Assembly: GCA_965206955.1 (NCBI GenBank)
Contig: OZ242252.1
Span: forward strand, 2,307,771 to 2,371,770
Length of the DNA: 64,000 nt
Direction of reading: 5' to 3'
From: Candidatus Foliamicus sp.
Lineage (GTDB): Bacteria > Pseudomonadota > Gammaproteobacteria > Steroidobacterales > Foliamicaceae
This document shows positions 4,138-63,805 of the stretch, piece after piece. Both the position numbers and the translations under genes were made by a program. Under the pieces are notes generated by a model, which made no database searches, was not told where the DNA came from, and was given only the letters and a program-made list of their open reading frames with translations. Position 1 is the first letter of the stretch. Each line of letters begins with the position of its first letter.

Positions 4138-4161
4138 AGCGCAATTATCGCCTCAGACCAC

Positions 4162-4190: not shown

Positions 4191-4263
4191 TATCAACTGG
4201 ATTTGTCGCCCCTTCCGCTCAAGCGAGAGTTTCGCGAGCGGAAACGCCAAGCAGCCTAACTTA

Positions 4264-4545
4264 TTACCCGGCGGCGAAAAGGGTGAAGATCCCTCCGATC
4301 ATGGTCACAACGATCGCGATGCTGCCGGTAAGGATCGCACGAAGAATGGAGTTCTTGGCCTGTTCGACCTTGGACTCGATCTTCGACTCAATCCTCGCTT
4401 CCAACGCGCTCAGATCCCCCTTCGTCGCGGAGTCTTCGCCCCGCAGGCCGGCAACCTGAGCGATGGCCTCCGCATGCTCCCGGTTCATGCCCGCTTTTTG
4501 CAGTGAACGGGCGGCCTGTAGCGTATCGAAGGCGACGGAGGTCAT
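4264..4545 (-). CDS. small coiled-coil protein with C-terminal membrane anchor (DUF1640-like)
   Basis: The start was re-chosen at MTSVAFDTLQAARSLQKAG... (93 aa). The longer ORF (to 4842) would overlap the TBDR 3' end. The protein has coiled-coil heptads and a hydrophobic tail, ILTGSIAIVVTMIGGIFTLFAAG. Confidence 0.6.
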   Translation of the reverse strand: MTSVAFDTLQAARSLQKAGMNREHAEAIAQVAGLRGEDSATKGDLSALEARIESKIESKVEQAKNSILRAILTGSIAIVVTMIGGIFTLFAAG

Positions 4546-4715
4546 GGGTGAAGTATAGCCCGCTGCAAACCACCCCCTTAAGCAAAAAAGGGCTGGGATC
4601 AAGCAGATTTTCCTGCCAGTCGCTCCTCGGCGCAAAACGCACCGGGTTGCAGCCTGACAGGATATCCAAGAGGCACGCTCACCCGCCTCCAGGGCGGGTG
4701 AGCGGTTGTTGCGAA

Positions 4716-7202
4716 CTAGAAGCTCCAGTCCACCTGAATGCCGATGCTGCGCAGATCCTGCGGCGCAACCATCACACCATGTATGTTGAACGTGAACCTG
4801 TAGGCTTCTGCAAAATTGACGTAGCGTGTGGCAGCAGCCCAAGTGTCCTGTTCAAACACATTGTCAACATAAAGTTCGACGCGCAGGCCTTCGCGTTCCA
4901 CACCTGCTCTCAAATTCGACAGCCAATATCCATCCAGCGTTGCGAGGTTTCCTCCGTCGCCAGCCCAGGTTTTCCCCATATACATGAAATCTCCGCGGGC
5001 GAAGAAATCCCAGTCGGCGGTCAGACGATCAGTGTAGGCAAGGCTGGCGTTACCCATAATGTTGGGGTAACGGCCTGACTGATTGCCCTCAAGATTTCGA
5101 CTTCCGGTGATGTCCTGGACGAAAGTCGCAGCATACGTTGTGTACTCATTGTCCTGCCAAGCAGCATTCGCATGAAGCATCCAGTTGTCGTCCAGTGCCC
5201 ATGAACTTTCCACTTCAATACCCCAAAGATTGGAATCTCCAGGGAAGCTGAATTCAAGCGTGTTTGGCCGGTTGTTTGGAATGCGATCAGGAACGGGGTT
5301 CTCGTCGTCAACATCACGGAAGAACACTACAAAGTTCTGAAACACCTGAGCCACCCACTTGTAGTAGTAAGTAGCCGCGCTTAATTGCCCTCTGCCTCCC
5401 AACAGCGTAGTCTTGATGCCAACCTCAATCGCGTCCAGTTCCTGCGCAGGCGTTGATTCCGTCGCCTCGGGAGCCTTGCGTCTAACCTGATCATACTCAG
5501 ATTCCGTACTGGCCTGACCTGTTTCGCGGTCGATGTAAGGCTCGATAAAGGCCTCACGCCCGGCATTGATTAGCTGCGTATTCAAGACCCCTGGAAGCAT
5601 GCCCTTCGAAAAACTAGCGTAAAGATTAGTAGTGTCGTTGGGTTGCCAACGCAGGATTACGCGTGGAATCAGTTCGTTGTAGTCGGCGCCTATGCCCGAA
5701 TTTGTTCTCTGATCGGCCATATATCGCGCTTCAAGGTCCAGCGAAAATTGTTGGCCGAGCGGGATTGAGGAGGAGGCAAATATTCCCTGTATCTTGGCCG
5801 TTTCGCCGCCTGTCGCCGGTAACGATACGGGCAACGGCCCCGCACATCCGATCGCTTCGGGAATCACGCAAGTTATTAGTACGTCTCCGCCCACGCCGGA
5901 TAATGCAATTTCGTGTTCAAAATAGCTGGCGCCGACCATCCAATCAATGCGGCTGTCAGGCGATGCCATAAGACGTAACTCCACGCCCCGGTCATCGTTG
6001 TTCTGAGGGTCGGATGTGTAAAACGCCTCCTTATCCGTCATGTCAAAATCCCGAATCCAATTGGCTCCGTGGTCGTTGTAAGAGAGATTCAACGCCAATT
6101 CCATTCCGTTACCCAAAGCGTAGTCCACGTCGAGGATCGACCGAAAAACTTCGCGAGTCAGGCCCATATTGCGCCGCTCGGGAACACCAGCCCGAAGTGC
6201 CCGCTGCGCCATCCTATCTACCAGAAAATTCGGCACTCCCCGACGCTCAAGTATGGCTGGGTAAAGCGATGTATTGTGCGAAACAAGCGGAGCCCCTGGT
6301 TCTCCCGGGTTTGGGATTCGTCCGCATATGTATTCGACTGGCGACAGGGATACAATCCTGCCGTCATTGTCCGGTCGCTGGATAGTCGTGCCACTACAGG
6401 TATCGTAGGAACGGCCACCAAGAAATGCGATAGCGGGCGGGCCGTCATCGTCCTCATGGTAGAACATGCGGAATCGAGCCGTGAGGCTGTCGCCCAGCGC
6501 CGAAAATAAAGTTAGCCCCGCGGATTGTGACGATTCCTTGCCCAAGCCGCCGCCGTCACTGGCAATATACATCGCTCCCTTGTTGTAGTGGCCCAGGCTG
6601 ATTCGAAAGGCGAGCCGATCTTCCACCAGAGGCCCGCCGAAACTGGCGGCGATGTTGGTCTGGTCATATTGCCCCGCCGACGCCCGCACCTTGCTCGAAA
6701 ACTCCGAAAGGCTGGGATTGCTGGTTACATAATTGATTGCTCCGGAGAAAGTGTTACGGCCGAAGAACGCGGATTGCGGCCCCTTGATGACTTCGACTCG
6801 TTCAACGTCCAAAAGGGGGATCGATTGCGACCCGCCCATGACATAAACGCCGTCCAGAAACAAGCCAGCCAATTGCTCATGTGGTTTGTCCGTGGGCCGG
6901 TCCATTCCCCGAAACCTGATTACTGTATTCAGCCGTCCAGGCCGGTTATGAGCCAGATTGTCCTGGAAAGCGAGCCCGGTCGTCTGGAGCGCGATGTCAC
7001 CAAGCGTCTGCAGGCCGGCCCGGCTCAGATCTTCGCCGGAAAACACTGTTATCGACAGCGGCGCCTCCAAGAGTGACTCGTCGCGCTTGCGGGCCGTGAC
7101 GATGATTTCTTCGAGTTCCTGCGCGGAAGCGCCCAGTGGAATGCACAATGCAACAGCAGGAATGGCGGCGCCAAGCAGGCGCCAGCGGAGTGTTTGGGCC
7201 AT
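4716..7202 (-). CDS. TonB-dependent receptor
   Basis: 828 aa. Signal peptide, plug-domain motif EEIIVTARKRDESLLEAPLSITV, VEVIKGPQSAFFG, and a C-terminal aromatic residue (...QVDWSF). Confidence 0.93.
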   Translation of the reverse strand: MAQTLRWRLLGAAIPAVALCIPLGASAQELEEIIVTARKRDESLLEAPLSITVFSGEDLSRAGLQTLGDIALQTTGLAFQDNLAHNRPGRLNTVIRFRGMDRPTDKPHEQLAGLFLDGVYVMGGSQSIPLLDVERVEVIKGPQSAFFGRNTFSGAINYVTSNPSLSEFSSKVRASAGQYDQTNIAASFGGPLVEDRLAFRISLGHYNKGAMYIASDGGGLGKESSQSAGLTLFSALGDSLTARFRMFYHEDDDGPPAIAFLGGRSYDTCSGTTIQRPDNDGRIVSLSPVEYICGRIPNPGEPGAPLVSHNTSLYPAILERRGVPNFLVDRMAQRALRAGVPERRNMGLTREVFRSILDVDYALGNGMELALNLSYNDHGANWIRDFDMTDKEAFYTSDPQNNDDRGVELRLMASPDSRIDWMVGASYFEHEIALSGVGGDVLITCVIPEAIGCAGPLPVSLPATGGETAKIQGIFASSSIPLGQQFSLDLEARYMADQRTNSGIGADYNELIPRVILRWQPNDTTNLYASFSKGMLPGVLNTQLINAGREAFIEPYIDRETGQASTESEYDQVRRKAPEATESTPAQELDAIEVGIKTTLLGGRGQLSAATYYYKWVAQVFQNFVVFFRDVDDENPVPDRIPNNRPNTLEFSFPGDSNLWGIEVESSWALDDNWMLHANAAWQDNEYTTYAATFVQDITGSRNLEGNQSGRYPNIMGNASLAYTDRLTADWDFFARGDFMYMGKTWAGDGGNLATLDGYWLSNLRAGVEREGLRVELYVDNVFEQDTWAAATRYVNFAEAYRFTFNIHGVMVAPQDLRSIGIQVDWSF

Positions 7203-7350
7203 AAATTACCCTCCCAAGTGGGTGTTTTCGAAACCGCGCGGGATAATAGCATGCACCGCAGATCCTGGCTATTTTGGCCCTACCAATAACCAAGGCAAGG
7301 TCACGCCACGAACGCTTCCCGTTCTGGTCGAGATCAAGCCCTGAGAAGCG

Positions 7351-9145: not shown

Positions 9146-9288
9146 TCAAACCGTGTTTCGTAATCGCCAACCTCCTCGGTTCAATCCGGCTTGCATTTTG
9201 GCTTTACAAAGCCTGAGCTGGGCGCCACCTTTGAGCCGGCGTCTGGGGTTTGTGTGCTGCGTGCATACGTATCGGGAGTAATCGAGTG

Positions 9289-10702
9289 ATGTCACCATTC
9301 CATAAAATGCGCTTCCGTATTGCTTATCGAAATGTTGCGTCTGTTGTCCTGATCGCGGCCGGCGCTGCCACTGTGGCAGTGGGGGAACCGGCAATCCCAG
9401 GCACTGCCGTTCTCTCAGGAACGGTAACGGCGGATACGCCGTTTACGCCGGCGCAGGTGTACGCAAAGAACCTCGATCGGAACATGCTGTACACCGTGTA
9501 TACGCACAACGGCGAGTATCGCGCCCCCAATCTGCTGCCGGGGGGCTACCGGATCTGGGCCGAGAAGGATGGCCTGACATCCCGCCACGAGATGCTGCGA
9601 ATTCAGGGTGAGGTGGAAATTGAGCTTGACCTCAAGATGGCCCCCGGGCCGGACAACCCGCTGACTCTGAAGGACTCCTCCAAGCCGGGACCGCAATTCG
9701 GCGGCGTCGGCAAGGACGCGCAACTGGTCTCCTATGATGAAATGTACCCACCTGGGCGGGGCAGAGACCTGGCCGAGCCTACCTGCCTAACCTGCCACGG
9801 CCATTCCTTCCTGCCGGCGCACCGTATGGGGCGTGAGCAATGGCACGCGATGATAAGCGTCATGCTTGATCCCAGCGGTCCGTTCGCCGATCCCACTTCG
9901 GCCCGCAGCATTACCGACGAGGAGCACGAAATCCTGGCGGATTACCTGGTGGAGAACTTCGGCCCGGACAGCTCCCGCCAAGGTATTGCGCCTCGACGTC
10001 AAGTATCCGCTGGACGAAGAGACGCTGGCCTCGGCGATGTTCATCGAGTATCTGACTCCCTTGCATCCGGCGGCCGACCTGTCCTTGAGATCGGCCAACG
10101 AGCCTTTCAAGCACCGGCTGCATCGGCCGATGCTGGACAACGACGGCAACCTGTGGGGCTCCAACAGCCTGATCGGCCTGAGCCGCGTCGATCCCCGCAC
10201 CGCGCAGTGGAGCCACTTTCCGATTGGTTATGACGAGAACAATCCGGAAACGGACATGTACGGCAAGAAAAAGGGTGACCCGGATTCGGTCTGGTCGTAC
10301 ATCTTCCCGCATGACCTCACTATCGATCGTGAAGGCCATGTTTTCTGGGCTGAGTTCCAGGGCCAGCACTTAGGCCGGCTGGACCCGGCCACCGGGGCAC
10401 AGAAGGAATACGACATCCTTCCCTTCTCGAAGGTCAAGGCATCGAGGCCCTACGGCATCGTTGCCGACCCGGATGACAAGATCTGGTTCGGCGACGGCGG
10501 ACTGGGCGGCGCGCTGGTCCGGTTCGACCCGGACACGGAATCGTTCACCTATTACCCGGAACCCCGCCAGGCCGACAATCCCAACCTGGACGTCACCCGG
10601 GAAGGCGCCATCATTTTCTCGACGCGCTCCAACAACCAGGCGGCGCTGGGAATTTTCTATCCCGACGTGTCGAAAATGACCGGCTACGGCGCCTATCGCT
10701 GA
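9289..10702 (+). pseudogene. disrupted paralog (P1) of the carboxypeptidase-regulatory-like / cytochrome c / beta-propeller family
   Basis: The reading frame splits between ORFs 9250..10233 and 9866..10702, a one-base shift near 9970-9980. The sequence reads ENFGPDS|SRQG..., where the paralogs read ENFGPDS(L/P)(P/S)(K/R)VLRLDV. About 140 aa present in both paralogs are missing at the junction HLGRLDP|ATGAQKEY (~10373-10392). Confidence 0.8.
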
Positions 10703-10901: not shown

Positions 10902-13288
10902 ATGATCGAATCCAAACACCGTCTGCTGACGGCCCTGCTGGCCACGGCAGCATCATTTGCACTACTCGTTGCACCTTCACCGGCACATGCCCAGGAAGAC
11001 GGGTTAAGGATTGAAGAAATCGTGGTCACAGCCCGTAAACGGGACGAGACGCTGCTCAAGGTACCTATCACGGTGACCGTGATATCGGCAGAGGACATCG
11101 CCCTCAAGGCCATCGACAATTTAAGTGATATTGTCGATTTTGCCCCGGGCCTCTTTTACGGTGGCCCGTCCGGCGGTAACGCTGATCGTTCCTCCCGGCG
11201 CTTGCTGATGCGCGGGATGCAGCCCTCCACCGATCGCCAACTCCGTCAGGGCGCCTCGGTATTCATCGATGGCGCCCCCGTATTGGGGGCTGAGATCGGT
11301 GATACGGCGGGCGCGGAAAGGATCGAGGTCATAAAGGGGCCGCAAAGCGCCTACTTCGGCCGTTCCACCTTCGGTGGCGCGATCAACATCATCACCAAGA
11401 CGCCGGGCCAGGAGTGGCAGGGCCAGGTGACGGCGGAAGCCGGCAGCTGGGGTACTTCGGATTTTGGTCTGGAGGTTGAAGGGCCCTTGGTTCGGGACAA
11501 ACTGACGTTTCGTGTCAGCGCCAACTCGGACTCCATGGATGGCCAGTATACGAATTGGGCCAACCCGTCGGAGACGCTGGGGGCAAGAAGCACCGAGGAT
11601 TTCTCGTTGACCCTGCATGCCACGCCGACAGACCGGTTCACTGCCAGACTTCGTCTTCACTATTGGGAGGACGATGACGGCGAAACTCCCAGCATTGCCT
11701 ATGGGATGGGCAACGGCGAAGACCAATACAACTGCAACCTGGGCGGCACCGCCGGCCCGATGTCGGGTGTGCCCGGGGATCCCAACTGGATTTGCGGCAC
11801 GCCCCGATTCCCGAAGGACAGCGAGATCGCCCGGGATTCCATCGTGACCGACGTGATCAGGGCGGCGCTCCGGGGCGACTTCAACCCGGGCTCCAATCTT
11901 GTTCTGCCCGGATTGCTCGACCACTTCGGGTTGAGGCGGGAGGCGTTTGAGGCCAGCCTGATTTTGGACTACGAATTCGCCAACGGCATGACCATCTCGT
12001 CCATCACCGCGGCTCACACTAACGATCAGGCCCGTTTGGGTGACTTTGATTACCGGTGGACGGGTGGCTCGCGGCCCGGAAACGACGTGGCTGGCGTCAG
12101 CGACCGGACGCTGGAGGACTTCAGCCAGGAAATCCGTGTCGCGTCGTCCGCTGACAAGAAGCTGCAATGGATGATCGGCGCGAGCTATTTCGACATTGAG
12201 GAAAACCTCGGCGGAGCTTTCAGAGTTACTGCTTTCCCCCTCCCTCGAATCCGCACCCACGCGGCCCGGAAAAGAACACGGGCCAGACCACAGCCTGGTT
12301 CGGTTCGATCTCCTATGACTTGAACGACCGGTTCGCCTTGAGCGTGGAAGGCCGCAGCCAGGCGGACAAGGTCAGCAAAGGATATCCTCGGGGAATCACC
12401 CTGGAAGACACCTTCGACGCCTTTACGCCCCGCGTCATCCTGGATTACAAGCCAACCGACCAGATTACCCTCTATGCCAGCTTTGCCCAGGGCACCCGGC
12501 CCGGTGACTTCAACACGTCTCTGGTGACGGCGTCGGCCGAAAATCTCGCTTGTATTTCGGCGGCCATTGGCGCGGACGTTTTTATCCCCGAAGAAGATCT
12601 GAACAACTACGAGCTGGGTTTCAAGGGTCTGTTGTGGGACGGCCGCGCGTCGGTCACCGCCGCGGTATACAGGGGTGAATGGCGAAATATGCATACCCGC
12701 GGCGAGGTCCAGTGTCCGCAACCGGACGGCACGTTCAACGGCTTCCAGACGACCGGACTTGGGGGCTCATCCGACCTGACAGGAGCTTGAAGTAGAGGTG
12801 CTTGCCGCCGTGACGGAGAACCTGACGCTGGAGGCGACCTTTGCATTGAATGATACGGAAATCCTGTCGCGCGACAGCAATGATGCCGGGATCCTGTTGG
12901 GGTGCGGGAGTTGGCCGGACTCGGCAATCAATTCTCGCGCTATCCCAGGATCAGCGGAACGGCGTCGGGTACCTACCGGAGCCAACTGACCGACACCACC
13001 CACTGGTTTGCCCGTCTGGACTACATCTATAAGGATGGCAAGTGGGCAACGGATGCCAACGTGACGAAAACGCCCAAAGAGAATCGAATCAACTTGCGGG
13101 TTGGCCTTGAAGTTGGCGAGGACTTACGCATAGAGGCCTACGGCACCAACCTGACGGGCGACGATGCGTTTACCGGGTTCCAGGCGTTTAATGACCTTGC
13201 GTTCTTCGGTGGGCGACGGGTGCTCACCATAGGTCTTCCCGTCAAACGCACCTATGGGGTGCGCGCCGCCTATCGATTCGACCTGTAA
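10902..13288 (+). pseudogene. TonB-dependent receptor interrupted by three frameshifts
   Basis: TBDR sequence is spread over four frame segments: 10902-~12240 (signal peptide, plug EEIVVTARKRDETLLKVPITV), ~12250-12787, 12789-~12897 and 12902-13288 (C-terminal ...RAAYRFDL). The shifts are at a C-run (~12236-12247), at ~12779-12786 and at a G-run (~12893-12903). An RBS (GGGAGG) precedes the ATG at 10902. Confidence 0.75.
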
Positions 13289-13318
13289 CCAGCGGGCGGT
13301 AGCCTTTCCCACCTTCAA

Positions 13319-13355
13319 GTCGTGCCCGGAGCCCTGTTCGGGTCCCGGGCACGAC
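13319..13355 (+). terminator. stem-loop downstream of the TBDR pseudogene
   Basis: Perfect 11-bp inverted repeat GTCGTGCCCGG...CCGGGCACGAC, 30 nt after the stop. The downstream T-tract is weak. Confidence 0.5.
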
Positions 13356-13442
13356 TATTGGGAACGCATGATAGAGACACCGAGTCTGGTGCGGGTGTAA
13401 CGCAACACCAGAAAAACAAGTCAACTCTGAACAGGACAGACT

Positions 13443-15296
13443 ATGGGTATTTCAACGATGTTATTGGGCCGTGCCGTTCTTCCGGTGCTTGCTTTGACAA
13501 TTGCACTCTCCGGGTGCGCTTCGCCGGAATCTGATTCGTCGATCGAGGATTCGTCCACTACGGCCGATTCGCTTGATGGGCTTAACCGGCTTTCCGGAGC
13601 GGTTAGCGCTGAAGCGCCATTTGCGGCTGCCTACGTTTACGCCCGCAATCTCGACAAGAACGTGCTCTACACGGTTTTTACCCACAAGGGCCAGTACCAG
13701 GCCATCAACCTGATGGACGGCGGCTATGAAATCTGGTCGGAGAAAGGAGGTCTGCGATCGGAGCATCAAATGCTGCGCATTCAGGGTGGCGTTGACCTGC
13801 AGTTGGATCTGGCATTGCAGCCAGGTCCGGATAATCCGTTGACGCTCAGGGACAGCACCAAGCCCGGGCCACAGTTCGGGGGCAGGAAAGACGCCGAGCT
13901 GGTTAGCTACGACGAGATGTATCCGCCGGGTCGTGCGCGGGATCTGGCCGAACCCACCTGTCTGACGTGCCACGGGTCGGCGTTTCTGCCCGCCCATCGA
14001 ATGGATCGGAACCAGTGGCATGCCATGGTTGGCATCATGCTAGACCCCAGTGGGCCGTTCGTGGATCCTGACTCGGCGCGCGCTATTAGCGCCGAGGAAC
14101 ACAACCTTCTTGCTGACTACTTAGCGGAGAATTTCGGGCCGGACAGCCCCTCCAGAGTACTCAGGCTGGATGTGGAATATCCCGTGGATGAACAGACGCT
14201 GTCGACGGCCATGTTTATCGAGTACCTGACACCGCTGCATCCGGGTGCGGACCTCTCCCTGCGGTCCCCCAATGAGCCGTTCAAGAACCGTTTGCATAGA
14301 CCCCATCTCGATAACGACGGCAACCTCTGGGGTTCCAACAGTCTTATCGGCGTTAGCCGGGTGGATCCGCGCACCGCCCAATGGAGCCACTTCGTCATCG
14401 GCAAGGATGAGAACAACCCCGAAACAGATATGTACGGCAAGAAGAAGGGAGATCCTGATTCCATCTGGTCCTACATTTTTCCTCATGACCTCACGATCGA
14501 TGACCAGGGTTATGTATTCTGGGCAGAATATCAGGGCCAGCATTTAGGCCGCCTGGATCCGAGCACAGGCAAGATAGACCGGTTTCACATGGATCCCGAG
14601 GGCGTTGTTGTTGACGAGAATGGGGTAGTCGGAAACATCCGTGGCCACAGTCCTCACATGGCCGCCAATGGCGACGTCTGGTTTACGGCAATTCGCGGCA
14701 ACAAGATCGGAAGGTGGGACCGCAAAACCGAAAAAATCAAACTGTGGGAGATTCCCACTGCAGATTCCTTTCCCTACGGTATTGAGATCGATCAGCAAGG
14801 GGATATCTGGTTTGCCGAGGCTTTCGGTTGTGCGATTGGGCGCTTCAATCCGGCAACCGAGACGTTCACGGAATATCCGTCCCTTACAAATCCCTGCGCG
14901 ATCAATCGGCTCGCCGCTGATTCCAGGGGTACGATCTGGTACTCCGTGGCCAGTGCCGGGAAGCTGGGTAAGCTCGTCCCTGAGACAGGAGAGCAAAAAG
15001 AGTACGAGATTCTACCCTTCTCGAAAGTCAAAGCCTCTTCGCCTTACGGCATCATCGCTGACCATGAAGACAACATCTGGTTCGGAGACGGTGGTTTGGG
15101 GGGCGCCCTGGTCAAGTTTGATCAAGAGAAAGAAGAATTCACCTACTACCCGGAACCGCGGCAGGCTGATAATCCCAACCTGGATATTACCCGCGAGGGA
15201 GCAATCATCTTCTCAACCCGGTCCAACAATCAGGCTGCCCTGGGCATCTTCTACCCGGACATCAGCAAGATGACGGGTTATGGCGCGTACCACTAA
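13443..15296 (+). CDS. lipoprotein (P2): carboxypeptidase-regulatory-like domain + mono-haem cytochrome c motif + Vgb/streptogramin-lyase-type beta-propeller
   Basis: 617 aa. Lipobox LALTIALSG|C. A transthyretin-like N-domain (YVYARNLDKNVLYTVFTHKGQYQAINLMDGGYEIW). A single CXXCH motif (EPTCLTCHGSAF...WHAMVGIM). Repeated propeller-blade signatures (GDVWFTAIRGNKIGRWD, GDIWFAEAFGCAIGRFNP, GTIWYSVASAGKLGKLVP, NIWFGDGGLGGALVKFD). Confidence 0.8.
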   Translation: MGISTMLLGRAVLPVLALTIALSGCASPESDSSIEDSSTTADSLDGLNRLSGAVSAEAPFAAAYVYARNLDKNVLYTVFTHKGQYQAINLMDGGYEIWSEKGGLRSEHQMLRIQGGVDLQLDLALQPGPDNPLTLRDSTKPGPQFGGRKDAELVSYDEMYPPGRARDLAEPTCLTCHGSAFLPAHRMDRNQWHAMVGIMLDPSGPFVDPDSARAISAEEHNLLADYLAENFGPDSPSRVLRLDVEYPVDEQTLSTAMFIEYLTPLHPGADLSLRSPNEPFKNRLHRPHLDNDGNLWGSNSLIGVSRVDPRTAQWSHFVIGKDENNPETDMYGKKKGDPDSIWSYIFPHDLTIDDQGYVFWAEYQGQHLGRLDPSTGKIDRFHMDPEGVVVDENGVVGNIRGHSPHMAANGDVWFTAIRGNKIGRWDRKTEKIKLWEIPTADSFPYGIEIDQQGDIWFAEAFGCAIGRFNPATETFTEYPSLTNPCAINRLAADSRGTIWYSVASAGKLGKLVPETGEQKEYEILPFSKVKASSPYGIIADHEDNIWFGDGGLGGALVKFDQEKEEFTYYPEPRQADNPNLDITREGAIIFSTRSNNQAALGIFYPDISKMTGYGAYH

Positions 15297-15421: not shown

Positions 15422-16597
15422 TCAAGGGATTTCAACGGCGACGGCTACGGCCTCCCCGCCGCCGATACAAAGAGCCGCGACGCCGCGCCCGCCGCCGCGA
15501 TCCTGAAGTGCGTGGATCAGCGTAACCAGGATGCGGGCGCCGCTGGCTCCGATCGGGTGGCCGAGCGCACAAGCGCCGCCGCGCACATTGACTTTTTCGT
15601 GCGGCAGATCAAGGTCGCGCATTGCCGCCATCGTGACGCAGGCAAAGGCTTCGTTGATTTCGAACAAATCCACATCGGCCACCTTCCAACCCACCTTATC
15701 CAGGAGCTTCCCGATCGCGGGTCCGGGAGCGGTTGTAAACCATTCGGGGGCCTGTGCGTGAGATGCGTGACCGACCAATCTGGCCATTGGGTCCAGGCCA
15801 AGGCTCCCGGATTGGCTGGCGCTAAGCATGAGCAAGGCGGCGGCGCCGTCGGATATGGAGGAACTGGAGGCGGCGGTTACGGTGCCGTCGCGCGCAAATG
15901 CCGGGCGCATGCTCGGAATCCTGCCCAGTTCGCAACGTCCTGGTTCCTCGTCCTCACAAACTCTGAAGGTCTTGCCGCGGCGTGAAAAGGTGACCTCGAT
16001 GATTTCCCGCGCGAACTCTTCGCTGGAATCCAACGCCCGGGTGACCGACTCGGTCGCAAAGTCATCCTGCTCCCGGCGGCTGAACTGGTAGCGCCGGGCG
16101 GTCTCCTCGGCGAAATGGCCCATCATCTGACCGTCGTAGGGATTCTGCAGTCCGTCGAGGAACATGTGATCGCGCAATTCCTTGTGCCCCATTCTCAGTC
16201 CATCGCGCGCCTTCTCCACCAGATAAGGCGCGTTGGACATGGATTCCATGCCTCCGGCAACAATGACCATTCCCGGATCCGCGAGGATGCGATCATGCGC
16301 CAGCATTGCCGAAAACAGCCCGGACCCGCAGACCTTGCTGATCGTAGCGCAGGGAGTGGCGGTCGACAGGCCGGCCGCCAGGGCGGCCTGGCGCGCGGGC
16401 GCCTGACCGAGCCCGGCAGGCAATACGCAGCCCATCAGCACTTCGCTGATTTCATCCGCTGACCGCCCTGTATCTGTCAGGCATGCTTGAATTGCAGCCG
16501 CCCCCAGGGCAGTAGCCGTAACCGGGGCCAAGGCGCCCAGCATGGCGCCGATGGGCGTGCGCCGCGCGGCGGCGATGACAGTATGTCGTTGGCTCAT
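15422..16597 (-). CDS. acetyl-CoA C-acetyltransferase (thiolase II)
   Basis: Active-site Cys context ISKVCGSGL, and C-terminal GGACALGHPIGASGARIL and ALCIGGGEAVA. The ATG at 16597 (MSQRHTVIAAARRTPIG) is preferred over the TTG at 16609. Confidence 0.9.
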   Translation of the reverse strand: MSQRHTVIAAARRTPIGAMLGALAPVTATALGAAAIQACLTDTGRSADEISEVLMGCVLPAGLGQAPARQAALAAGLSTATPCATISKVCGSGLFSAMLAHDRILADPGMVIVAGGMESMSNAPYLVEKARDGLRMGHKELRDHMFLDGLQNPYDGQMMGHFAEETARRYQFSRREQDDFATESVTRALDSSEEFAREIIEVTFSRRGKTFRVCEDEEPGRCELGRIPSMRPAFARDGTVTAASSSSISDGAAALLMLSASQSGSLGLDPMARLVGHASHAQAPEWFTTAPGPAIGKLLDKVGWKVADVDLFEINEAFACVTMAAMRDLDLPHEKVNVRGGACALGHPIGASGARILVTLIHALQDRGGGRGVAALCIGGGEAVAVAVEIP

Positions 16598-16681
16598 GAA
16601 ACGATCCAAAAGCTAATCCTTCCCAACTGGTGGCGGAGATATGTTATTTTGGCAGCCTGGAAAAGGGTAGGTAGGGGAAAC

Positions 16682-17476
16682 ATGACTCATTCCACTTTCA
16701 AGCTGCCGGCTGGAGTTAGATTCACGCCGGTCGTAGTCGGCCTTCTATTGTGCGCCGGTTCCGCAACCGGGGACGAGCGCGTCAATGAAATGCTTCAGGT
16801 GCAACAAGGCGCCACGGCAGCCGACAAGCAGGCGCAGACCGAAATAAACGGTTTGGCGGACGCAACCCAGGAGGCGGTCAGCGAATATCGCGTGCGCCTG
16901 CAGGAACTCGACCGTATCCGGCGCTACAACGACAATCTGCAGAACACGGTGAACGACCAGGAACGGGAAAAGACGTCCCTGACGCGGCAGATCAACGAGT
17001 TCGGCAATCTGGAGCAGGGCATCGTTCCGCTCCTGTTGGACATGATCGACGACCTCGAACGTTTCATCCAGTTGGACGTGCCGTTTCAGATGGAGCAGCG
17101 GCGCGACAATATCACCCGCCTTCGTGATCTGATGGATCTGTCCAACGTCAGCATTGCCGAGAAGTATCGCCAGGTCATGGGCAGTTATCAGGTGGAAACG
17201 CTCATCGGCCGCAATATGGAGTCCTATGCCGGGGAACTGGAGTTAGGCGGGATCATGCGAAAGGTGGACTTTCTGCGCGTGGGGCGAGTGCTGTTGGCCT
17301 ACCAGACGCCCGATCGTGAAGAGACGGGGTACTGGGACAAGCAGGCGGGCGAGTGGCGCGCATTGGACGATAGTTATCGCAGCCCGATTACCCAGGGGAT
17401 ACGCATGGCGCGCCGGCTGGTGCCGCCCGACATTCTCACCCTGCCGGTAGCAGCGCCGCAAGGAGGCCAGTCATGA
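16682..17476 (+). CDS. DUF3450 family protein (TtpB-like first gene of a TonB2-type system)
   Basis: The ATG at 16682 gives a signal peptide followed by a long coiled coil. It sits immediately upstream of, and overlaps (ATGA), the large MotA/ExbB gene, as in Vibrio-type TonB2 clusters. Confidence 0.75.
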   Translation: MTHSTFKLPAGVRFTPVVVGLLLCAGSATGDERVNEMLQVQQGATAADKQAQTEINGLADATQEAVSEYRVRLQELDRIRRYNDNLQNTVNDQEREKTSLTRQINEFGNLEQGIVPLLLDMIDDLERFIQLDVPFQMEQRRDNITRLRDLMDLSNVSIAEKYRQVMGSYQVETLIGRNMESYAGELELGGIMRKVDFLRVGRVLLAYQTPDREETGYWDKQAGEWRALDDSYRSPITQGIRMARRLVPPDILTLPVAAPQGGQS

Positions 17477-18858
17477 ACCGCTTGATTGGCATGACTGCGG
17501 CAGCCCTGTTCCTGGTCAGTCCGGTGGGCGCTCAGGAGGAATCGCAGCCGGCGACAGCGATCGAGCCGGCCGACACGGTGCTGGAATTGCTTGACCTGGT
17601 GCGAGCGGAGGCCCGTGAAGGGTCGATCATGAATCGAGAGCGCGTAGAGCAGTTCCGCCAGACGCGGGACGAGCGCCAGCGTATGCTCGAGGAAGTGTCC
17701 CGGGAGCTGGCGGCGGAAAACCGCCGCAGCACTCAGTTGAATCGGAGTTATGAGCAGAACGAAGCGGATCTTTCCGAACTCGAGGAACGCCTCCAGATAC
17801 GAATCGGTAATTTCGGAGAGCTGTTTGGCGTAGTACGGGACGTGGCCGGCGACACAGTCGCATCGGTGCTCACATCGCTGATTTCCGCGCAGTATCCGAA
17901 TCGCGCCGATCTCGCGCGTGAGATGGCGGAAGCAAAAGAACTGCCCAGCCTGGAAGATCTGCGCGGCCTGCAGCTGATGCTGCTTGAGGAAATGGCGCAA
18001 TCAGGACAGGTGGTACGCTTCAACGCGGGGATCACCGATCCGGCCGGGCGGCCGACGCAAGGAGAAGTGGTCCGGGTGGGCGCTTTCAACCTCGTTCACG
18101 ATGGCAAGTTCCTGACCCGCGACTCGGAAACCGCAGCCCTGCAAATTCTGCCCCGCCAACCCGCGGGACGCTATGTCAGTATGGCCGAGGACCTGGGCAA
18201 GGCCACGTCGGGCATTGTGGAGATGGCTGTCGATCCCTCGCGCGGACAACTGCTGGGGTTGCTTATTCAGGCGCCGGATCTCATGGAGCGTATTCAGCAG
18301 GGAGGATACGTCGGCTACACGATCATCGGCATGGGCTTTATCGGCCTGCTGATCGCCTTATGGCGGCTGGTGGTGCTGCAAGGCGCCGGTCGGCGGATAC
18401 GGGCGCAGCTTCGTAGTTCGCAGGCCAATAAGGGCAATGCCCTGGGGCGGATCCTCACGGTCTACGAAGAGCATCGAAGCGGAAACCTTGACGCTCTGGC
18501 GCTGAAACTCGATGAAGCCATCATGCGCGAGGCGCCGGTTCTTGAGCGTTATCAGGGGATCCTGAAGGTATTCGCCGCCGTTGCTCCGTTGCTGGGCCTG
18601 CTCGGCACCGTGGTCGGCATGATCATTACCTTCCAGCAGTTGACCCTGTTTGGCACCGGCGACCCCAAAATGATGGCCGGCGGCATATCGCAAGCTCTTA
18701 TCACGACCGTATTGGGGCTGATCGTCGCCATTCCTCTGGTCCTTCTGCACAGCGTGGTTTCCAGTTCCAGCCAGGGACTGGTGGAAATCCTCGAAGAGCA
18801 GAGCGCCGGGTTGATCGCGCGCAAGGCCGAAGGAAATTCAGACAAGGAAGCGTCATAG
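17473..18858 (+). CDS. MotA/TolQ/ExbB proton-channel family protein, long form (TtpC-like)
   Basis: 461 aa. Signal peptide, a large periplasmic coiled-coil domain, and a C-terminal MotA/ExbB channel block (GLLGTVVGMIITFQ...GGISQALITTVLGLIVAIP). Confidence 0.85.
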   Translation: MNRLIGMTAAALFLVSPVGAQEESQPATAIEPADTVLELLDLVRAEAREGSIMNRERVEQFRQTRDERQRMLEEVSRELAAENRRSTQLNRSYEQNEADLSELEERLQIRIGNFGELFGVVRDVAGDTVASVLTSLISAQYPNRADLAREMAEAKELPSLEDLRGLQLMLLEEMAQSGQVVRFNAGITDPAGRPTQGEVVRVGAFNLVHDGKFLTRDSETAALQILPRQPAGRYVSMAEDLGKATSGIVEMAVDPSRGQLLGLLIQAPDLMERIQQGGYVGYTIIGMGFIGLLIALWRLVVLQGAGRRIRAQLRSSQANKGNALGRILTVYEEHRSGNLDALALKLDEAIMREAPVLERYQGILKVFAAVAPLLGLLGTVVGMIITFQQLTLFGTGDPKMMAGGISQALITTVLGLIVAIPLVLLHSVVSSSSQGLVEILEEQSAGLIARKAEGNSDKEAS

Positions 18859-18877
18859 CTGCCGGAACGATTAGAGC

Positions 18878-19429
18878 ATGACCTTCCTGATTGACTCCTG
18901 GGTTTCGATCAGAGGCTTTTTTGAGCTGGGCGGGCCAGTGCTGTACGCCATCCTCGGCGTAACCATGCTGATGTGGACTCTGATTGTGGAACGCCTGTGG
19001 TATTTCTTCGGCGTTCTGCCGGAGGAAATGCGCAACGCCCGGCAACTGTGGGAAAACGGGAAGCGCGACGGGTCGTGGTTCGCAACCAATATCCGGCGGC
19101 TTATTCTTTCGGAAGTCGGCCTGGGCGCGAAGCGCAATCTGGGGCTGATTCAAACGCTCATGCAGATTCTGCCTCTTCTGGGCCTCCTGGGCACGGTTTG
19201 GGGCATGATCCAGGTGTTCGAAATCATGACGGTGTTCGGCACCGGCAACGCACGTTTGATGGCGGGCGGCGTTTCGCAAGCCACCATACCAACTATGTCT
19301 GGCCTGGTCGCTGCGCTTTCTGGACTCTATTTGTCGGCCTGGCTGCGGCAGCGCGCCAAACTCAAGATGGAGGAGCTGGAGGACGTGCTGGAAATGCAAT
19401 TTGACGAAGGCTCTCAGAACCGGGAATGA
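18878..19429 (+). CDS. exbB: MotA/TolQ/ExbB proton-channel protein
   Basis: 183 aa with three TM segments and the motif LLGLLGTVWGMIQVF...GGVSQATIPTMSGLVAA. Confidence 0.85.
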   Translation: MTFLIDSWVSIRGFFELGGPVLYAILGVTMLMWTLIVERLWYFFGVLPEEMRNARQLWENGKRDGSWFATNIRRLILSEVGLGAKRNLGLIQTLMQILPLLGLLGTVWGMIQVFEIMTVFGTGNARLMAGGVSQATIPTMSGLVAALSGLYLSAWLRQRAKLKMEELEDVLEMQFDEGSQNRE

Positions 19430-19836
19430 TTGAGCGCAAACATCGCAAACGGGCGGCGGAAGAGGCCGAGATCAACATCACGCCGATGCTGGACATCGTG
19501 TTCATCATGTTGATTTTCTTCATTGTCACAACTTCCTTCGTAAAGGAGCTCGGAGTGGATCTCGACCGTCCGTCAAACGCGCCGGTCAAGGAGGAGAAGC
19601 GTTCCGAGGTCATCCCGGTTCGGATTGAAGCCAATGGGCAGATCTTTGTTGAGAACCGCCTGGTGAACGTAGGAGCGGTGCGGGCCAATATCGTTACCGG
19701 CCTTGCCGCCAAGCCGAACGCCACCGTGGTCGTGATCGCGGACCGCGACGCGGATTCCGGTTACATCGTAACGGTCGTCGATCAGGCCCGTGTGGCGGGC
19801 GCCGGCAAAGTTTCGCTGGCGGCCGCGTCGCGCTAG
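19426..19836 (+). CDS. exbD: biopolymer transport protein ExbD/TolR
   Basis: 136 aa. EINITPMLDIVFIMLIFFIVTTSF is the canonical ExbD N-terminal TM segment. ATGA overlap with exbB. Confidence 0.88.
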   Translation: MIERKHRKRAAEEAEINITPMLDIVFIMLIFFIVTTSFVKELGVDLDRPSNAPVKEEKRSEVIPVRIEANGQIFVENRLVNVGAVRANIVTGLAAKPNATVVVIADRDADSGYIVTVVDQARVAGAGKVSLAAASR

Positions 19837-19846
19837 GGGGTATGCT

Positions 19847-20254
19847 ATGCCGCAGATACGAAGGCGCAAACCGGAAGAAGAGGGCGAGATCAACATCACG
19901 CCGATGCTGGACATCGTGTTCATCATGCTGATCTTCTTCATCGTTACCACTTCATTCGTGAAGGAACCCGGCATCAACCCAAATCGCCCCTGGGCACAAA
20001 CGGCGGCAACCAAGGAGCGAGGCAACATCATGATCGCGGTTTCGGATAGCGATCAGATATGGATGAACAAGAAGCGGGTAGAACTCCACGGCATTCGACA
20101 GTTGGTTGAGGCCGCGCGGGCGGAGAACCCGGAAAGCAGCGTTATCATCGTAGCCGACCAGGCTGCGTCTACCGGCATGGTGATCGACCTGATGGATAAT
20201 GTGCGAGCTGCCGGCGTGACCAGCATTGCTTTGGCTGCGGAGGGAGTGGACTAG
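19847..20254 (+). CDS. exbD: biopolymer transport protein ExbD/TolR, second copy
   Basis: The ATG at 19847 gives MPQIRRRKPEEEGEINITPMLDIVFIMLIFFIVTTSF. The TM segment is identical to the first ExbD and the periplasmic domain differs. Confidence 0.85.
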   Translation: MPQIRRRKPEEEGEINITPMLDIVFIMLIFFIVTTSFVKEPGINPNRPWAQTAATKERGNIMIAVSDSDQIWMNKKRVELHGIRQLVEAARAENPESSVIIVADQAASTGMVIDLMDNVRAAGVTSIALAAEGVD

Positions 20255-20895
20255 TGATGAACCAGACAAGATGGCGCACGGTCGGATCGATCGTCGGCGG
20301 TGTATTTGTAGCACTTCTGTTGTTTCTGTTCATGAACACGCTGATCAGTGGCGGCAAGGGCAAACAGGGCGCGGCCACCGCAGGACAGATCGTGGACCTG
20401 ATCCGCGTGCAAGACGATCCAATCGTGCAGACCAAGCAGCGTGTTCGGCCCAAGAAACCGCCTCCGCCCAAGGATCCTCCGCCTCCGCCCAAACTCAAGC
20501 TTTCCAACGAGCCCAAACCGCAGAAAAATCCGATGCGTATCGATCTTCCCAAGATTGACGTTTCGGGCGCCGCCGGAGGTGGGCCGTTCATCGGAACCTG
20601 GGAACCCGGCGATCCCGCGGCCGAAGGCGAAGCAATTCCGATCGTGCGCATCGATCCCCAGTACCCGCGCGAGGCTCTGATGGACGGCACCGAGGGATAC
20701 GTCAAATTTGAAGTGCTGATCGGCACCGACGGCAGTGTGCTGGATGTAGAGGTAACCGAGGCGGCGCCCGGCCGAATTTTCGTTCGTAACGCGGTGCGCG
20801 CGGTGCGTCGCTGGAAATTCAAGCCACGCGTAGTTAACGGAGTTGCGGTGGAGCGTTGGGCCAAGACCAGCATCGTGTTCGAGCTGGATAGCTGA
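20254..20895 (+). CDS. tonB: energy transducer TonB (copy a)
   Basis: 213 aa. N-terminal TM segment, Pro-rich spacer (KKPPPPKDPPPPPK), and TonB C-terminal domain (YPREALMDGTEGYVKFEVLIGTDG...RRWKFKP). Confidence 0.88.
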   Translation: MMNQTRWRTVGSIVGGVFVALLLFLFMNTLISGGKGKQGAATAGQIVDLIRVQDDPIVQTKQRVRPKKPPPPKDPPPPPKLKLSNEPKPQKNPMRIDLPKIDVSGAAGGGPFIGTWEPGDPAAEGEAIPIVRIDPQYPREALMDGTEGYVKFEVLIGTDGSVLDVEVTEAAPGRIFVRNAVRAVRRWKFKPRVVNGVAVERWAKTSIVFELDS

Positions 20896-20933
20896 GGCCG
20901 AAGGCAGCGTCAGGCTTCGAACATTTTCCTGAG

Positions 20934-21575
20934 ATGGGAGGGTCGCCGATGAGACATGCAGTATGGCGCCGGGGCGCCTCGATAGCGGGCGGAACTTTCG
21001 TCGCGCTGGCGCTGTTCTTGTTGATGACCGTCCTTATTGACGGCGGACAGGGCCAGCCGGGTACAGCAACGGCGGGACAAATCGTGGATCTGATTCACCT
21101 GCAGGAAGAGGAAATCGTGCCCCGCAAGGTGCGCGTCCTTCCCAAGAAACCGCCGCGCAAGGAACCTCCGCCTCCCGTAAGAATCACGCAATCCAATGAC
21201 ATTGAGCCGCAAAGGGAACCGCTACGTATCGACTTCCCCACGATTGGCGCAACGGGCGGCGGGCCGATCATAGGACCCTGGAAACCAGGCGCCCCTGCGC
21301 CCGAGGGCGAAGCAATTCCGATCCAGCGTGTTAACCCGCAGTATCCGCAGCAGGCGCTGATGGACGGCACCGAGGGCTACGTCAGCCTTGAGGTACTGAT
21401 TGGCACTGACGGCAGGGTGCTGGAAGCAAAGGTGACCGAGGCCGCGCCCGGCCGAGTTTTCGTGGGTAGCGCAATCCGCGCGGTGCGTCGCTGGAAATTC
21501 AAGCCACGCGTAGTTGATGGGGTCCCGGTCGAGCGCTGGGCCAAGACCAGCATCGTGTTCAAGTTGGATAACTAA
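20934..21575 (+). CDS. tonB: energy transducer TonB (copy b, tandem paralog)
   Basis: 213 aa with the same architecture as copy a. The C-terminal domain is near-identical to copy a, including a 39-nt perfect DNA match. Confidence 0.85.
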   Translation: MGGSPMRHAVWRRGASIAGGTFVALALFLLMTVLIDGGQGQPGTATAGQIVDLIHLQEEEIVPRKVRVLPKKPPRKEPPPPVRITQSNDIEPQREPLRIDFPTIGATGGGPIIGPWKPGAPAPEGEAIPIQRVNPQYPQQALMDGTEGYVSLEVLIGTDGRVLEAKVTEAAPGRVFVGSAIRAVRRWKFKPRVVDGVPVERWAKTSIVFKLDN

Positions 21576-22853
21576 ATGGCTAAACACCTCATTGCGGCAC
21601 TGGCTTTGGCGTTACTGGCGCCGCTGGCGGCGGCGCAGGACGACTACACCGACCTGCCTACCTGGCATCCGCTTCGGCCGGACCGTGTTGCTGAAGAACG
21701 CGAAGAAACATCCGGTCAGATGAGCGAAGGCTTTTACCGGCGGTTGTCCCGCGCTCACGAACTTCTGGACGAAGATAATCTCACAGAGGCCGCGGACCTG
21801 CTGGACCGGATTCGCCCCGACCGTATTGGAAAATATGAAGCCGCCCAGCTCTACCAGACCTACGGATTTATCTACTCGCAACTGGAACGGGAAGAGGACG
21901 CCTTCGGAGCATTCGAAAAGTGCCTGGAGTTGGACGCATTGCCGACTTATGTTCAGCAGGGCATTGTGTATTCGGTAGCGGGCTACTACGCGGGTAAGGA
22001 CCGCTACCAGGAATCCAACGACACCTTGCTGCGCTGGTTCCGTTACGAGGCGGAGCCCATTGCCGATGCATACATCCTCATGGGCGCCAATTTCGCCCAG
22101 CGGGAAATGATGGCTGAGGCCTTGCCGTACGTGGTTCGCGCCAACCAGCTGGCCAAGGAACCCAGTGAAAACTGGCGTAATCTCCAACTGGCCATCCACG
22201 TTGAGTTGGGCCAGTTTGCCGAGGCCATAGAGTTGTTGAAAAGCAATTTAGCTATCTGGCCCGACAATCTGCGCTTCTACCTGGTTCTTTCCAGTCTGAA
22301 CATGGAACTCCAAAACGACGAGGGCTCTCTCGCCGCACTGGCGATTCCCTGGTATCGCGGATTGCTGGTGAAAGAGGTGGAAATCATTAACCTGGTGCGA
22401 CTTAACCTGTTTCTGGAGAATCCCGCCCGGGCCGGCTTGATCCTGAGTGAGGCGATGGAACGCGGTTACGTAGAAGAAAGCTCCGAGAATCTTCGCCTGC
22501 TGCTGAGTTCCTGGACCATGGCGCGAGAAATGGAGCGGGCCGTGGATACGATCGATAAGCTGGCAGCGACTTCCGACGATGGCGAGTACTACCATCGCAA
22601 AGCCATGTTGCTGAACGAGACCGGCGAATGGGAGGGGGTGGTGGAATCCTGCCGCTTGGCGCTTGAAAAAGGCGGACTGGAGCGCCCTGCCGAAGTCTGG
22701 GTGCTGCTGGGTGTTTCCCTGGCTGAGCTGCGGCGCTTTGATGAAGCAATAGAATCCTTCGAGAGCGCCAAGAAAAGTGGCAATGAGAATATTCGCCGCA
22801 ACGCTATTGCCTGGATTGCCTACGTCAAGGATCGCCGAGGGGATAGTTCCTGA
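21576..22853 (+). CDS. tetratricopeptide-repeat protein (TtpD-like last gene of the TonB2-type operon)
   Basis: 425 aa with a signal peptide and repeated TPR-like helical pairs. It starts directly after the tonB stop (TAAATG). Confidence 0.7.
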   Translation: MAKHLIAALALALLAPLAAAQDDYTDLPTWHPLRPDRVAEEREETSGQMSEGFYRRLSRAHELLDEDNLTEAADLLDRIRPDRIGKYEAAQLYQTYGFIYSQLEREEDAFGAFEKCLELDALPTYVQQGIVYSVAGYYAGKDRYQESNDTLLRWFRYEAEPIADAYILMGANFAQREMMAEALPYVVRANQLAKEPSENWRNLQLAIHVELGQFAEAIELLKSNLAIWPDNLRFYLVLSSLNMELQNDEGSLAALAIPWYRGLLVKEVEIINLVRLNLFLENPARAGLILSEAMERGYVEESSENLRLLLSSWTMAREMERAVDTIDKLAATSDDGEYYHRKAMLLNETGEWEGVVESCRLALEKGGLERPAEVWVLLGVSLAELRRFDEAIESFESAKKSGNENIRRNAIAWIAYVKDRRGDSS

Positions 22854-63229: not shown

Positions 63230-63805
63230 ATGAAAGCGTTACTTTGTCTTGATTTCGAAAACGATATAGTCCACCTGAAGGGCAAAGTGTCGGGCAAGGG
63301 CTATGCGGCCTATGATGCCGACCACGGGACGCTGTCACTAGTGCGCGGCGTCCAGGACAGGTTTCGGGCTGCCGGCCTGCCGGTCATTCACGTGCGGGTC
63401 GGCTTCTATCCGGGTTACGCGCAGAGTCCCAAGGGATCGCCGCTAATGGGGCAGGCGCACCAATTCGGCGCCTTCGATCTGAGTGGGTGGGGTGGCCAAT
63501 TCGTCGATGACGTCGCTCCCCAGGGAGAGGAACTGGTCATTACCAAGCACCGTGTCGGCAGTTTTCACGCAACGGCAATGGAACTGACCTTGCGCAACAT
63601 GGGCGTAACGCACATTTTTCTGGCCGGCGTTGCAACCGATATGGTTGTGGAGTCCACGGCAAGAGAGGCGCATGATCGCGATTTCAGCGTGAGCGTGATC
63701 GCCGATTGCTGTATCGCGGCCAATGAAGAAGACCAGCTGCGCAGCCTCAAGAATATGCAGAAATTGGCCACCATCCTGACCAGCGGTGAGATCGAACTCG
63801 ACTAA
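63230..63805 (+). CDS. cysteine hydrolase / isochorismatase-family protein
   Basis: 191 aa with LLCLDFEND, THIFLAGVATDMVVESTAREAHDRDF and a catalytic Cys context VIADCC. Confidence 0.82.
   Translation: MKALLCLDFENDIVHLKGKVSGKGYAAYDADHGTLSLVRGVQDRFRAAGLPVIHVRVGFYPGYAQSPKGSPLMGQAHQFGAFDLSGWGGQFVDDVAPQGEELVITKHRVGSFHATAMELTLRNMGVTHIFLAGVATDMVVESTAREAHDRDFSVSVIADCCIAANEEDQLRSLKNMQKLATILTSGEIELD

Follow-up and report, generated by a model that had tools for sequence, protein, structure and literature searches.

What does a secreted protein do that joins a single c-type haem motif to a propeller of the kind known from streptogramin (virginiamycin B) lyase, Vgb, and is such a protein the partner of a TonB-dependent receptor (TBDR)? 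The question is raised by a 64,000-nucleotide stretch of the genome of Candidatus Foliamicus sp. (contig OZ242252.1, positions 2,307,771 to 2,371,770 of the forward strand; hereafter the window), in which three paralogous genes, P1, P2 and P3, have a common layout of signal peptide, beta-sandwich, mono-haem cytochrome c domain and seven-bladed Vgb-type propeller. A three-copy family with this four-part architecture had been read from the letters of the window alone (the original prediction), and the open reading frames (ORFs), the domain searches and a structure model bear it out. The three copies are the following.

13443..15296, plus strand: P2, intact, the lipoprotein form; an ORF of 617 aa whose exact protein is also present in a sister strain.
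61114..62946, minus strand: P3, intact, the periplasmic form (signal peptide of the ordinary kind); 610 aa, counted from an ATG at 62946.
9289..10702, plus strand: P1, a pseudogene of the P3 type, visible as two frames (9250-10233 and 9866-10702).

The reading frame of P3 extends back to a GTG at 63159; its start was set at the ATG because homologs begin at MSTITWKHF. P2 is 96-98% identical to its orthologous proteins in Foliamicus metagenome-assembled genomes (MAGs), and P3 is 97% identical to its ortholog in locus L005 and ~79% identical at the protein level to the P2-type orthologs of L003 and L004.

Drawing on these sequences and on models built from them, we propose that P2 and P3 would be self-contained extracytoplasmic redox proteins ("haemo-propellers", or haemo-propeller oxidoreductases), a proposal to which we give an even chance. 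The parts and the design principle, that of cytochrome-fused propeller enzymes, are known; the combination is new. Searches of the literature and of the PDB returned no description of a haem-c/Vgb-propeller fusion, and the literature held nothing relevant for COG4257/PF24684 or for Foliamicus, so that the earlier statement, which knew of no characterised protein with both parts, stands and extends to solved structures.

An AlphaFold2 model of P2, built on 50 homologs, shows three domains in a rigid arrangement, with a predicted local distance difference test score (pLDDT) of 90.4 and a predicted template modelling score (pTM) of 0.89. The domains are located as follows.

13584..13817, plus strand: CarboxypepD_reg-like beta-sandwich, residues 48-125, from the all-beta segment of the model and a weak match to Pfam PF13620.
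13896..14147, plus strand: mono-haem cytochrome c domain of class-I type, residues ~152-235, from motif conservation and from profile and Foldseek matches.
14154..15254, plus strand: seven-bladed Vgb-type beta-propeller, residues ~238-604, from the strand pattern of the model, Foldseek and profile.

For the beta-sandwich, the PF13620 (CarboxypepD_reg) scores of P2 (14.6 bits, E 0.043) and P3 (23.0 bits) are both under the cut-off of 32.3, which is passed in homologs of the family (e.g. 51.8 and 56.1 bits). The cytochrome domain has helices at residues 164-177, 189-200 and 217-231 in the model, with the haem motif CLTCH at the end of the first long helix. The propeller (residues 238-604) has seven blades of four strands each. 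In the model the last blade of the propeller is completed by the strand directly following the cytochrome domain, and therefore no flexible linker separates the haem domain from the propeller. A Foldseek search of the full-length model against the PDB returned propellers only, and no solved structure there spans the whole architecture. Profile searches, structure prediction and Foldseek together thus recovered both the cytochrome and the Vgb-type propeller that had been anticipated, and no full-length counterpart in the PDB.

The evidence for a working haem site comes from conservation. Two elements of P2 matter here.

13959-13973, plus strand: CLTCH haem motif, residues 173-177, the single CXXCH of P2.
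14037-14039, plus strand: codon of Met199, the candidate distal ligand, conserved in 47/50 aligned sequences.

In an alignment of 50 sequences (23-97% identity) Cys173, Cys176 and His177 are invariant, and of 120 homologs 115 have a CXXCH. The original prediction had looked for the distal ligand in a conserved W-H-x-M segment, and in this it went astray: Trp192 is conserved (45/50), and the residues offered as ligands are variable (His193 in 8/50, Met195 in 13/50). Since these vary and Met199 is kept, Met199 is likely to be the distal haem ligand; it also aligns with the methionine of the W..7..M segment in SorB.

The closest relatives of this domain are electron carriers or acceptors. Its profile matches, in the PDB, the haem domain of the alpha subunit of quinohaemoprotein amine dehydrogenase (QHNDH; 1jmx at E 3e-9, 1jju at 1e-7) and SorB, which is the cytochrome subunit of the sulfite dehydrogenase SorAB (2blf_B at 6e-6), and also actinobacterial bc1 cytochrome c subunits. 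NCBIfam gives a weak match to the SorB cytochrome over residues 160-216; among 31 members, Pfam Cytochrome_CBB3 is found in 28 and Dehyd-heme_bind in 12. When modelled in isolation (pLDDT 89.6), the domain has 1jmx_A as its top Foldseek match, followed by small electron-carrier cytochromes, all with weak E-values; the cytochrome domain of cd1 nitrite reductase (1h9x) is a weak structural match too. Searching 1.84 billion cluster representatives with the domain profile yielded 616 proteins at E <= 1e-10, many of them tandem proteins with 2-8 haems, QHNDH-like proteins or proteins fused to EB_dh. By these sequence relationships the domain is a modular electron-transfer cytochrome.

Additional haems point in the same direction. 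A second cytochrome c domain precedes the beta-sandwich in P0121, P0132 and P0158, stands in tandem with the first in P0129, and follows the propeller in paralogs of ~770-800 aa from L019-L021 and L050, where the second CXXCH lies near residue 670-690. Such repeated independent gain of a haem is what would be expected of an electron wire and is hard to square with a purely structural haem. The paralogs with two cytochromes in L019 (100-2496), L020 (239-2608) and L021 (222-2552) lie ~7.3 kb upstream of a standard family gene; in L050 the paralog with the C-terminal cytochrome (2281-4584) is on the opposite strand from the standard family gene, and a TBDR gene lies in between. A first, more stringent ORF scan found tandem paralogs in 16 of 80 loci. 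The family as a whole has a wide distribution among uncultured bacteria of soils, sediments and the sea (Gammaproteobacteria, Rokubacteria/Methylomirabilota, Acidobacteria, Burkholderiales and Alphaproteobacteria).

If the haem is a wire, what does the propeller do? The Vgb-type blade motif seen in the window is real: P-x-G-I..D..G.IWF.E...N.IGR.D is common to the family and Vgb. Vgb (PDB 2z2n/2z2o/2z2p and 2qc5; PF24684) is likewise a seven-bladed propeller, and it is the best match of the family both in sequence (2z2n at E 1.5e-31 in a PDB sequence search, E 2e-51 with the profile) and in structure (2z2n and 2qc5 first in Foldseek, E 1e-19 to 1e-17, at ~20% identity). The Pfam family Vgb_lyase (PF24684) is matched at 87.9 bits by P2 and 102.3 bits by P3 against a cut-off of 50, and matches to SGL are present. 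From this one may argue that the proteins are true Vgb-like lyases, or lactonases like SMP-30, which act on an environmental cyclic ester while the cytochrome only regulates or stabilises them. Database entries partly say so, since members are called hypothetical, "virginiamycin B lyase" (by Joint Genome Institute (JGI) pipelines) or "streptogramin lyase/mono/diheme cytochrome c family protein".

The catalytic residues tell otherwise. With Vgb numbering checked on the sequence alignment to PDB 2z2n, the best profile register places the catalytic His270 of Vgb at Tyr535 of P2, a tyrosine in 49 of 50 sequences; the H270A mutant is the catalytically inactive enzyme of PDB 2z2p. Further catalytic or Mg-binding residues of Vgb are reportedly His228, Glu268 and Glu284 (Korczynska et al. 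2007). In the same register His228 falls on residue 488 (Asn in P2; 27 Arg and 22 Asn among the 50), Glu268 falls on the variable Ser533, and Glu284 lies beyond the aligned region. The CylK paper places the active site of Vgb in blades 6-7. As the catalytic histidine is replaced by tyrosine, streptogramin-lyase chemistry is not supported, and the lyase step that had been put forward for these proteins lacks support on the same grounds. Nor are the specific NCBIfam models for Vgb(A)/Vgb(B) reached (52-88 bits, far under the cut-off of 600), and Vgb itself is an Mg-dependent lyase of the cytoplasm with one domain of ~300 aa, whereas P2 and P3 are exported proteins of 617 and 610 aa whose propeller is joined to a beta-sandwich and a c-type cytochrome. 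We therefore regard a lyase or lactonase as very improbable. Members that bear the name "virginiamycin B lyase" can wrongly enter resistome surveys as genes of antibiotic resistance, with the catalytic residues of the lyase missing.

In place of the lyase set, the propeller carries a conserved polar ring: His348 (48/50), His402 (42/50), Tyr445 (50/50), Arg489 (50/50) and Tyr535 (49/50). These residues sit at the starts of the inner strands of successive blades, and this would be the place at which propeller enzymes usually build their active site.

In the mechanism that we propose, Sec would export the protein, P3 being soluble in the periplasm and P2 lipid-anchored, facing the periplasm from the outer membrane by the +2 rule. 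The propeller would derive from the Vgb/SMP-30 type with loss of the lyase catalytic set, and the conserved pocket at the mouth of the central channel (the five residues of the ring) would bind a substrate, a metal or an organic cofactor. The cytochrome domain, tied to the propeller, would relay single electrons between this pocket and soluble periplasmic carriers, a principle of design also found in quinohaemoprotein dehydrogenases, SorAB and cd1 nitrite reductase. Some paralogs of Foliamicus-type Gammaproteobacteria have come to lie beside TBDR genes, where they may act on a receptor-imported compound, as a lineage-specific use. Haem occupancy, ligation by methionine, electron transfer within the molecule, the direction in which electrons flow and the nature of the substrate are all things that we infer.

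Several observations weigh against this proposal. The five homologs without a CXXCH are P0075, a C-terminal fragment; P0110, with ~400 aa and a propeller match only; P0033; P0104; and P0105. The last two are full length and have AxxFH for CxxCH, with the histidine and the methionine retained, and P0033 has cleanly lost the entire cytochrome domain in frame. The haem is therefore not absolutely obligatory, and P0104, P0105 and P0033 may be natural variants without haem or with non-covalently bound haem. Furthermore, no cofactor, metal site or substrate is identifiable from the sequence, the relatives of the propeller with known function (lyase, lactonases) are non-redox enzymes, and the gene neighbourhoods, including a conserved gammaproteobacterial synteny block without a coherent pathway, give no pathway clue.

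The comparison with known systems shows how far the analogy reaches. The haem domain of QHNDH alpha (1jmx, 1jju; PF09098) and SorB (2blf_B), by profile the closest relatives of the cytochrome domain of the family, serve periplasmic dehydrogenases as built-in electron acceptors. Catalysis there lies with a cysteine tryptophylquinone (CTQ) subunit and a molybdenum subunit, respectively, not with a Vgb-type propeller, and the similarity is remote, over ~70 residues. In type II quinohaemoprotein alcohol dehydrogenases and in the cd1 nitrite reductase NirS a periplasmic propeller holds the cofactor and a fused class-I cytochrome c serves as the relay. The family resembles them in this design of a cytochrome-fused periplasmic propeller; it differs in that theirs are eight-bladed propellers which bind pyrroloquinoline quinone (PQQ) or haem d1, with other domain orders, and no homology between their propellers and that of the family was detected. 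Should electrons pass between haem and propeller as proposed, the family would offer periplasmic redox chemistry a new catalytic module, and the expansion of tandem paralogs would suggest substrate diversification. The link to TBDRs is partial.

Where in the envelope do the proteins work? The signal of P2 is the following.

13443..13517, plus strand: lipoprotein signal peptide of P2 with the lipobox LTIALSG/CAS (L-S-G-C25, Ala26 at +2), from sequence.

The lipobox with alanine at +2, as noted before, is thus present, and by analogy with the Lol rule of E. coli (+2 not Asp) P2 is predicted to reside at the outer membrane. Cys25 is followed by a tether rich in Ser and Asp, and the pLDDT is <55 over residues 1-40. 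The P2-type orthologs P0001-P0003 retain the lipobox; within the family it occurs in ~10 of 120 homologs, mainly of the P2 subclade, and most members have ordinary signal peptides, which weakens the analogy with bipartite pairs of receptor and surface lipoprotein. The c-type cytochromes are normally exported by Sec. Signal peptides of the P3 type (62850-62946 in the window; orthologs P0004-P0015) have a twin-arginine-like n-region (ARRHVV / TRRFVV); this looks Tat-like, which would be odd for a c-type cytochrome, and Tat export of P3 was considered and not adopted, the RR motif not being conserved in the family.

The lipobox and the tether of P2 would also suit a non-catalytic lipoprotein of the envelope that binds or scaffolds, capturing substrate in the manner of SusD or TbpB or serving as a receptor accessory, with a haem of structural function. 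A CarboxypepD_reg-like domain is likewise found at the N-terminus of some TBDRs, propellers are common as binding platforms, and Reg_prop sensor domains (BT4663) are among the structural matches. Against such a role stand the rarity of the lipobox, the conserved polar ring of the propeller, and the invariant CXXCH plus methionine together with the recurrent extra cytochrome domains, which a structural haem hardly explains. We consider it improbable.

The question of a receptor partner was approached through the gene neighbourhood. A set of 79 loci was taken from contigs of one genome per species, ORFs were called, and TBDRs were detected with an iteratively built hidden Markov model (HMM). The gammaproteobacterial set comprised 29 loci (Foliamicus, Woeseiaceae, Steroidobacteraceae and further MAGs) and the set from other phyla 51 loci (Rokubacteria/Methylomirabilota, Acidobacteria, Burkholderiales and Alphaproteobacteria). 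In the gammaproteobacterial loci a TBDR lies <=200 bp from the family gene in 10/29 and <=3 kb away in ~16/29, and TBDRs make up 12 of 74 adjacent genes vs 13 of 281 genes at greater distance (Fisher p 0.0015, odds ratio ~4, with no correction for common ancestry). The TBDR is found in at least three positions: upstream in the same direction (P2 type), convergent on the downstream side (P3 type, and P2 in L002 and L003), or 1-3 kb away. TBDR genes stand on both sides of P2 in L002 and L003, and next to the P3-type orthologs of L006-L008, L011 and L017 a convergent TBDR is 21-82 bp away. L002 itself is an 11.7-kb contig binned as Terriglobia (Acidobacteriota) which carries a P2 ortholog at 98% and the same flanking TBDR genes as Foliamicus; most likely the contig comes from Foliamicus and was mis-binned.

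The 51 loci of other phyla hold a single TBDR among 99 adjacent genes (in L050). When the 97 genes directly next to the family gene in non-gammaproteobacterial loci were surveyed with Pfam, no family recurred, the maximum being three matches to Cytochrome_CBB3; two further distant members have unrelated neighbours, and ORF clustering over 80 loci gave no conserved partner gene. The link to TBDRs in the original prediction therefore splits in two. It stands as an enrichment beside the gene in Foliamicus/Woeseiaceae-type Gammaproteobacteria. It falls in the other phyla; the adjacency being confined to one gammaproteobacterial group, the TBDR is not the conserved neighbour of the family, and the prediction is to that extent refuted. 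A gene standing alone in the 51 loci fits a self-contained enzyme.

In the window itself, the following features bear on the receptor.

10902..13288, plus strand: TBDR pseudogene between P1 and P2, with net frameshifts near 12237, 12784 and 12903.
4716..7202, minus strand: intact TBDR paralog, with the RxRxxY[HW]EDDDG block as in the TBDR pseudogene.
13318..13356, plus strand: hairpin in the gap from the stop of the TBDR gene to the start of P2, from RNA folding; a possible terminator or attenuator.
16487..22853, plus strand: TonB2-type energising cluster of DUF3450, two ExbB (ExbB/MotA), two ExbD, two TonB (TonB_C) and a TPR protein, from Pfam on the sister-strain locus.

The block RxRxxY(H/W)EDDDG had correctly been reported as common to the pseudogene and the paralog, and it is equally correct that P3 has no TBDR next to it in the window. 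The TonB/ExbBD cluster begins 1.2 kb downstream of P2; within it the ExbD pair and the TonB pair are internal paralogs (91% and 77% DNA identity, respectively, over matching parts).

The fate of P1 and of the receptor gene was traced through a sister strain, L001, which was retrieved by exact look-up of P2 and has a collinear locus at 99.5% DNA identity to the window. Aligned to L001, the TBDR gene shows three net frameshifts relative to an intact ortholog of 795 aa. P1 has an internal in-frame deletion of 136 aa, i.e. ~three propeller blades, and an extra C (a +1 frameshift) at 9972. The decay that had been suspected for P1 and for the adjoining receptor gene is thus confirmed. At the P1 locus, L003 (a related Foliamicus genome) has a full-length copy with 91% identity to P3, and L001 an in-frame but deleted copy of 471 aa with an overlap of ~10 bp at the deletion junction. 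The decay appears stepwise, from full length (L003 5032-7257) through the 136-aa in-frame loss (L001 5902-7317) to deletion plus frameshift (window 9289-10702). The DNA identity of P1 to P3 is ~97% at the 3' end and ~87% in the 5' part, a pattern that hints at gene conversion between the two copies.

Sequencing error was considered as the main cause of the frameshifts and rejected: all four net frameshifts fall in P1 and the TBDR gene, the ~14 kb of genes that flank them being free of any, and not one of the four is a plain change of homopolymer length. The ETF-QO gene and the 12 kb 3' of P2 have zero net frameshifts relative to the sister strain. Because the flanking genes are free of frameshifts, the P1 and TBDR pseudogenes are taken as real and not as assembly noise. 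Between the equivalents of the TBDR (4716-7202) and of ETF-QO (7351-9021), L001 also contains an insertion sequence (IS) element (2294-3538; rve integrase, 414 aa), which is missing from the window at 7203-7350.

Despite its dead neighbour, P2 is intact and 100% identical to the protein of the sister strain; it is therefore not dependent on that receptor. The two genes are moreover separated by the hairpin, for which folding of 13300-13380 gives -40.5 kcal/mol and a z-score of -5.6. The stem at 13318-13356 is kept in L001, where a T-run comes after it.

It is on this ground that a dedicated role has to be judged, in which the protein would be the periplasmic processing partner of a TBDR that imports a metal chelate or a cyclic ester or peptide; the propeller would bind the compound and the haem would give an electron (e.g. 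for reductive metal release), much like periplasmic siderophore esterases or reductases whose genes adjoin those of their receptors. P1 and P2 flank one TBDR gene with an energising cluster nearby, P2 has a lipobox and, in L002 and L003, TBDRs on either side, P3-type orthologs have their convergent TBDRs, and TBDRs are enriched among the adjacent genes. Yet that enrichment comes from a test blind to shared ancestry and from TBDR-rich genomes (the window alone holds three in 64 kb), the adjacency all but vanishes in the other phyla, P3 lacks it in the window, and P2 outlives its receptor behind a strong hairpin. All five TBDRs tested remained under every NCBIfam subfamily cut-off and fit no substrate-specific subfamily; the intact L001 ortholog of the pseudogene, too, is of generic type by these scores. 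TBDR-adjacent partners are known, namely SusD, lipoproteins of the TbpB/HpuA type and the periplasmic siderophore esterases PfeE/IroE. By analogy, P2 may be likened to them through TBDR gene adjacency and its lipobox; they differ in that the family has no sequence or fold similarity to them, is TBDR-adjacent in one gammaproteobacterial group and consists mostly of non-lipoproteins. We hold such a partnership, as the role of the family, to be unlikely. It is possible that the TBDR-coupled role is a lineage-specific specialisation of the same protein and not the defining role of the family. The pairing in this lineage could then point to a processing step after import, and a module of receptor plus periplasmic redox processing, if true, would have no described counterpart.

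The self-contained redox protein and the receptor link can also be joined in a single reading, in which a Vgb-type propeller would have been converted from a lyase to a new kind of periplasmic oxidoreductase, dependent on a cofactor or metal and wired to the respiratory chain by its own c-haem, with Foliamicus-type paralogs dedicated to particular TBDR-imported compounds, for instance through reductive metal release from a chelate. We find this more elaborate version unlikely.

Further conserved neighbours of the family gene in Gammaproteobacteria form the synteny block mentioned above. One of its genes is adjacent to P3.

63230..63805, plus strand: isochorismatase-family gene, divergent from P3; a neighbour of P3-type genes.

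Within Gammaproteobacteria no other neighbour of P3-type orthologs is kept as widely as this divergent gene, whose ORF cluster is represented next to the family gene in 14 gammaproteobacterial loci. The block comprises hydantoinase A/B, a thiamine pyrophosphate (TPP) enzyme, acyl-CoA dehydrogenase, TctCBA, isochorismatase, a class IV aminotransferase and IclR; TctCBA, the acyl-CoA dehydrogenase, the TPP enzyme and hydantoinase A/B are farther upstream than the isochorismatase gene. As the block forms no coherent pathway, no substrate hypothesis was built on it.

Two further genes of the window may be recorded. An ORF of 653 aa on the plus strand (55042-57003; GC content at third codon positions 0.75) lies between a FAD_binding_4 oxidase gene and a DUF1838 gene; a Pfam search gave it no significant match, only a sub-threshold one to Ferrochelatase. 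Also on the plus strand, 49257-53411 encodes a large DEAD/DEAH helicase of the Lhr type (1384 aa) in which all Lhr winged-helix domains are present.

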